Both the position numbers and the translations under genes were made by a program. This document shows positions 442-492 of a stretch of DNA of 64,000 nucleotides, one piece after another. Under the pieces are notes generated by a model. It did no database searches, had not been told where the DNA came from, and saw nothing but the letters and a program-made list of their open reading frames with translations. The DNA lies in the NCBI RefSeq assembly GCF_057098645.1, contig NZ_CM169472.1; one strand, written 5' to 3'. Within the stretch, counting starts at the first letter, position 1. Each line of letters opens with the position of its first letter.

Positions 442-492
442 TCACCTTTCTCCGGGCAAAAAAAACCTGCCACAGCAGGTTTTCATCATTAT

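Follow-up and report, generated by a model that had tools for sequence, protein, structure and literature searches.

The closest described system is that of phage HK97, in which gene 15, the founding example of a moron, lies after the chaperone gene and before the tape-measure gene and is equipped with a promoter and a terminator of its own, for expression from the prophage (Cumby, Davidson and Maxwell, 2012, PMC3594210). The GenBank record of HK97 (AF069529) holds a 'putative terminator' after this gene, at 8398-8422 (Juhala et al., 2000). Phage L and P22 likewise have a predicted intrinsic terminator within a late operon that is antiterminated and has a single promoter, and the phage L genome paper, which considered the roles of such intra-operon terminators unknown, listed partial termination and the stopping of non-antiterminated transcription as options (bioRxiv 10.1101/2020.10.05.325894). 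Hairpins are further found in lambda tR', a regulated operon switch located beside its promoter, and in REP/BIME elements such as that of malE-malF, placed between cistrons of one operon that has to supply its products in unequal amounts.

Here we analysed a hairpin located between the chaperone genes and the tape-measure gene of an E. coli prophage. The window, meaning the whole 64-kb stretch of DNA that was analysed, begins, at its left end, with the tail region of a long-tailed lambdoid prophage of E. coli, whose late genes are on the minus strand and which shows 98-99% identity to BP-4795, Stx2a_WGPS8, phage 1717 and many Stx1a/Stx2c phages. The late region is composed of the following features:

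17189-17261, minus strand: tRNA gene upstream of the late leader
16333-16167, minus strand: late-promoter leader STnc100 (Rfam, 101 bits)
16139-16121, minus strand: tR'-like hairpin with U8 that ends the leader (-15.4 kcal/mol)
10601-10038, minus strand: TerS
10041-8380, minus strand: TerL
8316-6379, minus strand: capsid-like ORF, with a GTG start at 8316
6167-4803, minus strand: portal
4806-3421, minus strand: repeat-containing ORF of 461 aa
between the repeat-containing ORF and the U-like gene, minus strand: connector and closure genes
2297-1953, minus strand: U-like gene
1891-1178, minus strand: tail tube with a C-terminal Ig domain, ATG at 1891
1172-798, minus strand: tail assembly chaperone G (Pfam Phage_TAC_1, 2e-61)
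807-801, minus strand: G/GT slippery heptamer A AAA AAG, read from the sequence
493-807, minus strand: T frame, the C-terminal part of the GT fusion, reached by a -1 shift at A AAA AAG (Pfam Phage_tail_T, 5e-19)
495-493, minus strand: TAA stop codon of the T frame
1-441, minus strand: 5' part of the tape-measure gene, ATG at 441-439, running off the window (Pfam TMP_3, 2e-13, at the N-terminus)

The tape-measure protein is 97-100% identical to those of BP-4795-like Stx phages. The repeat-containing ORF (3421-4806, minus strand) includes a 162-nt tandem repeat at 3887-4641 (4.7 copies, 94% identity), corresponding to protein repeats of approximately 54 aa, and in one related genome PGAP merged this ORF with the portal as 'frameshifted'. 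Elsewhere in the window, four Rfam matches above the gathering score were observed, namely an ALIL pseudoknot (30626-30742, minus strand), a lambda cIII thermoregulator (33402-33460, plus strand), a Peptidase-S11 RNA (49730-49810, minus strand) and naRNA4 (61459-61536, minus strand). The ALIL pseudoknot is the frameshift signal of an IS3-family element, which indicates an IS inside the prophage, and the Peptidase-S11 RNA and naRNA4 matches suggest that host chromosome is reached beyond approximately 49 kb.

The gap between the T frame and the tape-measure gene contains, in the direction of transcription, a stem-loop, a U-tract and a Shine-Dalgarno region:

442-492, minus strand: intergenic gap of 51 nt, between the TAA at 495-493 and the ATG at 441-439
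461-484, minus strand: terminator stem-loop AAAACCUGC-UGUG-GCAGGUUUU, with its G+C core at 480-465 and its loop at 474-471
458-465, minus strand: U-tract, T8, abutting the stem directly, read from the sequence
445-453, minus strand: Shine-Dalgarno region of the tape-measure gene, GGAGAAAGG (GGAG/AAGG), 4 nt past the U-tract

Read on the minus strand, the gap and its borders are TAA-AUAAUGAUG-AAAACCUGC-UGUG-GCAGGUUUUUUUU-GCCC-GGAGAAAGG-UGA-AUG, and the distance from the end of the T-run to the tape-measure ATG is 16 nt. The core of the stem is CCUGC/GCAGG with a 4-nt loop, and four A residues (484-481) are able to pair with the first T residues of the run, giving a 10-bp stem. A hairpin between the chaperone and tape-measure genes had been proposed in a preliminary description, and its existence is borne out by direct reading of the minus strand, by the Pfam identities of the flanking genes (G/GT and tape measure) and by the conservation of its position and structure, with covarying stems. 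The same description gave the 16-mer acctgctgtggcaggt followed by T8; the 16-mer is indeed located at 480-465, whereas the T count was off by one, because 'gcaggt' already ends in the first T of the run. In strict terms, T7 follows the 16-mer or, equivalently, T8 (465-458) follows gcagg.

When a 38-nt segment was folded, the hairpin had a minimum free energy of -12.5 kcal/mol (z = -3.3), a value equalled by 1 of 200 shuffles. Folding of 81 nt, covering the whole gap and its flanks, gave z = -0.95, with the terminator hairpin as the only one in the fold. The stem is G+C-rich and, like the loop, within the size usual for intrinsic terminators (approximately 5-14 bp and 3-8 nt, respectively). T8 at 465-458 provides the U-tract, lying directly 3' of the stem on the transcribed strand and having the expected length (approximately 6-9 U), and the whole element is placed outside coding sequence, after a stop codon and co-oriented with the genes. 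The hairpin is most likely an ordinary intrinsic terminator, of a known kind and at a known moron junction. Term-seq has been published for O157 Sakai (PMC7547250), and Hfq CRAC and Term-seq for the Sakai prophages (PMC4104026, PMC7547250).

We also considered an inverted repeat due to chance, with no function. A loose terminator scan found 28 candidates against 18.7 expected by chance in 20 kb and is not discriminating, which leaves room for a fortuitous match; it lists only the plus-strand mirror of the hairpin (462-483), because it maximises the stem and thereby uses up the T residues. A strict scan accepted only perfect stems with a minimum of 5 bp, 4 or more of them G-C pairs, adjoining a run of 7 or more T. 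On both strands of the 64 kb it retrieved 2 sites, whereas 200 dinucleotide shuffles gave 0.03 on average. Both sites are on the late-gene strand and in intercistronic gaps.

We also considered other identities for the element. A bidirectional terminator was rejected, as the plus-strand mirror has just UUUU before CAUCAUU, and HK97, Fraca and Evi do not share the A-run upstream. A REP/BIME element or another catalogued RNA family was likewise discarded: the hairpin resembles that of malE-malF in lying between cistrons whose products are needed unequally, but REP elements have no U-run and follow a consensus of their own, and no Rfam match was obtained over 442-492 at the gathering score or at E <= 1. 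The prophage sRNAs HnrS/EcOnc, which the literature places just 'within late genes', were excluded because the 51-nt gap is too small for a 66-nt sRNA and its own promoter.

The second strict-scan site, the only one in the window besides the tape-measure hairpin, is located at 8332-8354 (minus strand), in the gap between TerL and the capsid-like ORF (8317-8379). It is composed of GAACCGC-UCCG-GCGGUU and U7 (stem-loop at 8354-8339, -10.9 kcal/mol, z -4.3), followed by an AGGAGG Shine-Dalgarno sequence and the GTG start at 8316. A further hairpin is present at 1909-1933 (minus strand), in the gap between the U-like and tail-tube genes (1892-1952), with the composition AACCCGC-CGCGU-GCGGGUU and U6 (stem-loop at 1933-1915, -10.6 kcal/mol), again followed by AGGAGG and then by the tail-tube ATG at 1891. 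A hairpin at this U/V junction is also present in HK97, where it is annotated as a putative terminator, and in HK022, Evi, Fraca and Pm34. A weak isrK match, below threshold, overlaps the U/V hairpin of the window (Rfam, 1911-2006, 24.7 bits against a gathering score of 50). In BP-4795, the major-tail ORF64 starts at a GTG equivalent to window position 2023 and overlaps the U-like gene and the hairpin, whereas the PGAP annotation and the corresponding ORF of L008, one of the related loci (L numbers) compared below, start at the ATG at 1891; since this ATG is preceded by AGGAGG, the long ORF64 start is probably a mis-annotation.

The tape-measure hairpin of the window and the putative terminator of HK97 occupy the same position, directly before the Shine-Dalgarno sequence of tape-measure genes that are homologous (82% identical in their first 147 aa), and share a 5-8-bp G+C stem, a 4-6-nt loop and T8, at 12 nt (HK97) or 16 nt (window) from the ATG. 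The two differ in the stem, CCCGC/GCGGG in HK97 and CCUGC/GCAGG in the window, and in what precedes it: in HK97 the hairpin comes after a promoter and gene 15, whereas in the window there is neither cargo nor promoter, just the 51-nt gap. The likeness to the phage L and P22 terminators lies in the single-promoter, antiterminated late operon, although those belong to another phage group and, in L, to another junction (the end of the procapsid module), for which no cargo slot was described (bioRxiv 10.1101/2020.10.05.325894).

We searched a phage collection and IMG/VR for loci with a homologous tape-measure N-terminus and obtained 170 usable loci with 54 distinct 48-nt upstream sequences. A G+C hairpin directly followed by T5-9, ending 11-19 nt before the tape-measure start, was observed in 53 of the 54; this count takes in L090, L110 and L126, whose hairpins are plain by eye or by energy scoring and for which the stem-tabulation script returned 'none'. 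By automated scoring, the free energy is -6 kcal/mol or lower in 49 of the 54 sequences, against 7 of 2700 shuffles, with a median of -11.6. The 54 sequences contain approximately 28 distinct stems, several of which are related by compensatory changes: CCUGC/GCAGG in the window against CC-GC/GC-GG in L010 (in backgrounds 97.6% identical over 1.9 kb), ...CCU/AGG... in L147 against ...CCA/UGG... in L154, and CAC/GUG in L094 against CGC/GCG in L161; in L031 a C-to-U change leaves a G-U pair in the stem. RNAalifold, applied to a MAFFT alignment of 26 variants, returned 0 pairs, the stems and loops of unequal length being out of register. The spacer and the Shine-Dalgarno sequence between hairpin and tape-measure gene are also conserved in the relatives. 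Since the position is kept with approximately 28 different stems, several of them connected by compensatory changes, the structure, including the adjoining U-run, is under selection. Together with the strict scan and the energy test, these comparative sequence data effectively refute chance as an origin of the hairpin, to which we attach next to no probability. The T-run (458-465 in the window, and its counterpart in L005-L084) varies from 7 to 9 residues among otherwise near-identical prophages, a pattern suggestive of homopolymer slippage.

The constancy of the U-run also bears on a role in RNA stability. A hairpin at this place could block 3'-to-5' exonucleases or cap a processed 5' end, so that the tail-tube/G/T segment of the message would outlive the tape-measure segment or the downstream message would be stabilised. 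The malE-malF REP and the intercistronic hairpins of Rhodobacter puf do so, and the three late-strand hairpins of the window are all located at cistron borders beside highly expressed genes. Terminator hairpins have also been reported to stabilise the mRNA upstream of them (PMC11696848). A stabiliser, however, needs no U-run, yet 5-9 U abut the stem in 53 of the 54 variants, and the hairpin is modest (-12 kcal/mol). The constant U-run argues for an action on the polymerase rather than for pure RNA stabilisation, which we consider improbable as the main function.

The most divergent relative, Proteus phage Pm34 (L093), is alone in having no stem. It keeps a T5 tract (1482-1500) at the same distance before the tape-measure Shine-Dalgarno sequence, and the U-rich tract may belong to the backbone, irrespective of the hairpin. 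One could imagine that such a tract, placed before the Shine-Dalgarno sequence, recruits ribosomal protein S1 and that the hairpin keeps the tape-measure ribosome-binding site free of upstream structure. It would fit this that in all variants 11-19 nt separate the end of the U-tract from the ATG, that stem-less Pm34 still has T5 at that place and that all three late-strand hairpins are arranged as stop, hairpin, U-run, Shine-Dalgarno and start. The same layout is nevertheless expected of any terminator squeezed into a short gap, the selection on a G+C stem is not explained in this way, and lambda and HK022 do without the hairpin; an aid to translation initiation is therefore very unlikely to be what the element is for.

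The distance between the T stop codon and the tape-measure ATG is bimodal, with 19-52 nt in 85 loci and 289-658 nt in approximately 83 loci, and a gene for a small envelope protein is present between T and the hairpin in approximately half of the relatives. The long gaps contain at least 10 unrelated families of small ORFs, in cassettes of 32-42% G+C, and the largest cargo ORF is co-oriented with the late operon in all loci but one (phage VIPKPNMC05). We identified YebO/gp15-like proteins (PF13974), a membrane zinc-ribbon protein, a Cys-rich secreted protein and seven or more different lipoproteins; examples are found in L008 (2024-2437), L094, L136, L141, L145 and L155. Nearly all of the products are predicted envelope proteins, and their genes, beside the tape-measure gene, are candidates for superinfection exclusion. 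A count over 5,426 complete E. coli genomes showed the junction in 1,244 of them, with a maximum of 7 copies in one genome.

Three close relatives of the window (L008, L049 and L056) carry a gene for a 137-aa lipoprotein between T and the same CCUGC hairpin, and for this reason the window is to be seen as the empty form of the cargo slot. In terms of what defines a moron, the terminator is present, and the hairpin allele of the window directly follows the lipoprotein cargo in L008 and L049; an extra ORF is absent, none fitting in the 51 nt of the window, and no promoter-like site was found on the minus strand between positions 1 and 3000. The window thus has the terminator alone and is not itself a moron. 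Our promoter scan of the occupied slots found nothing even in the accepted moron of HK97, and just two matches, of 9 of 12 positions, in L094.

The boundaries of homology between loci are of two types. Where different cargo is found in the same backbone (L143/L144 and L004/L089), homology resumes exactly at the T-run, which implies that the stem-loop travels with the cargo. Where an empty and an occupied slot are compared (window/L008 and Evi/L170), homology resumes just upstream of the hairpin, which implies that the hairpin stays. The lone hairpin may be the remnant of a moron after gene loss, or cargo may have been inserted upstream of a pre-existing terminator. A possible, rather speculative model is that the T/tape-measure junction is a hotspot of cargo exchange around a composite terminator, to which the backbone would contribute the U-tract and Shine-Dalgarno sequence and the cassette the stem-loop, so that recombination at the stem/U-tract boundary would regenerate a working terminator; the lone hairpin would then be a minimal 'empty cassette', kept as insulator or tuner of the late operon.

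In lambda, polymerase modified by Q resists intrinsic terminators. The window carries a Q antiterminator gene (17575-18063, PF06530) and its own pR'-leader-tR' unit, and late transcription should thus, judging from lambda biology, largely ignore intrinsic terminators. It must pass the hairpin, because the distal tail genes are all downstream and no promoter-like site is present on the minus strand in 1-3000. The window hairpin is similar in form to tR', but whereas tR' is a regulated switch beside the promoter, the hairpin is located approximately 15.8 kb further downstream, is not known to have a dedicated regulator and, by analogy with lambda, should be overridden. As in lambda G/GT, only a minority of ribosomes, those shifting at the slippery site, would translate the T frame, and the hairpin would therefore rarely be covered by ribosomes and be free to fold.

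On balance, we lean towards the view that the hairpin is a genuine Rho-independent terminator, selected at the T/tape-measure junction of HK97-type tail modules, that stops polymerase not modified by Q and acts as a moron terminator or insulator. A non-modified polymerase, started at a cargo promoter or spuriously in the lysogen, would form the hairpin in its transcript and be released at the U-tract, so that in the prophage the tape-measure gene and the distal tail genes would not be expressed. In the lytic cycle, polymerase modified by Q and coming from pR', approximately 15.8 kb upstream, would read through it. We infer both termination at the site and read-through under Q from the hairpin anatomy and by analogy with lambda. 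In a prophage without cargo the present role is probably insulation, or the hairpin is mostly a vestige, whose influence on the dosage of late mRNA would be small at most. Against a terminator or insulator, the scan for promoters gave none upstream of the empty slot for it to act on, and the hairpin is intact in every empty-slot lineage with an HK97-type tape-measure protein (window type, GAACCGC type, Evi type and Fraca/mEp390 type) except Pm34.

That persistence suggests a benefit independent of cargo, and it is among the points that can be raised for the function proposed in the preliminary description, an attenuator that sets the stoichiometry of chaperone and tape measure. A fixed fraction of late transcripts would end at the U-tract, and for the tape-measure and low-copy distal tail genes less mRNA would be made than for those of head, tail tube and chaperone. 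The hairpin anatomy suits termination, the genes downstream all encode low-copy virion parts while those upstream include high-copy ones, and partial termination was listed as a possible role by Casjens and co-workers (bioRxiv 10.1101/2020.10.05.325894). Against it, the late operon of the window is of the Q-antiterminated type. Furthermore, no hairpin is present at the T/tape-measure junction of lambda, in which T overlaps H by 8 nt, or of HK022 and Pm34, both with a gap of 19 nt, yet all three use the same G/GT/tape-measure arrangement; the HK97 hairpin is annotated as a putative terminator after a moron, and about half of the relatives have theirs directly after cargo. Equivalent hairpins also directly precede the genes for capsid and tail tube, the proteins of highest abundance, and attenuation at those places would be counter-productive. 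Nor does the element look like a regulated attenuator, as we found no competing antiterminator helix in the 81-nt fold, no leader ORF and no Rfam cis-regulatory match. Attenuation is possible, though neither needed nor favoured by these data, and we regard it as unlikely; a boundary or insulator for non-antiterminated polymerase is more likely than a dosage attenuator, and the functional reading of the hairpin is to be corrected in this sense.

No cargo gene was found at the U/V or TerL/capsid hairpins in any locus examined, and terminators inside the operon may consequently have a cargo-independent role in late expression, which could be a modest attenuation, mRNA stabilisation or an aid to ribosome binding through the U-tract.

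For the window itself the finding matters little: the hairpin is most likely a standard terminator, and the presence of a moron with its terminator at this junction is known from HK97. HK97 gp15 is a superinfection-exclusion factor aimed at DNA injection, and if the junction is indeed a hotspot of cargo exchange, its cargo, overwhelmingly inner-membrane proteins, lipoproteins or secreted proteins, would fit superinfection exclusion of the same kind. With at least 10 unrelated small envelope proteins encoded there in the relatives, the junction is a convenient place in which to seek new superinfection-exclusion genes, and it also provides a clean natural test case for the role of terminators inside antiterminated late operons.
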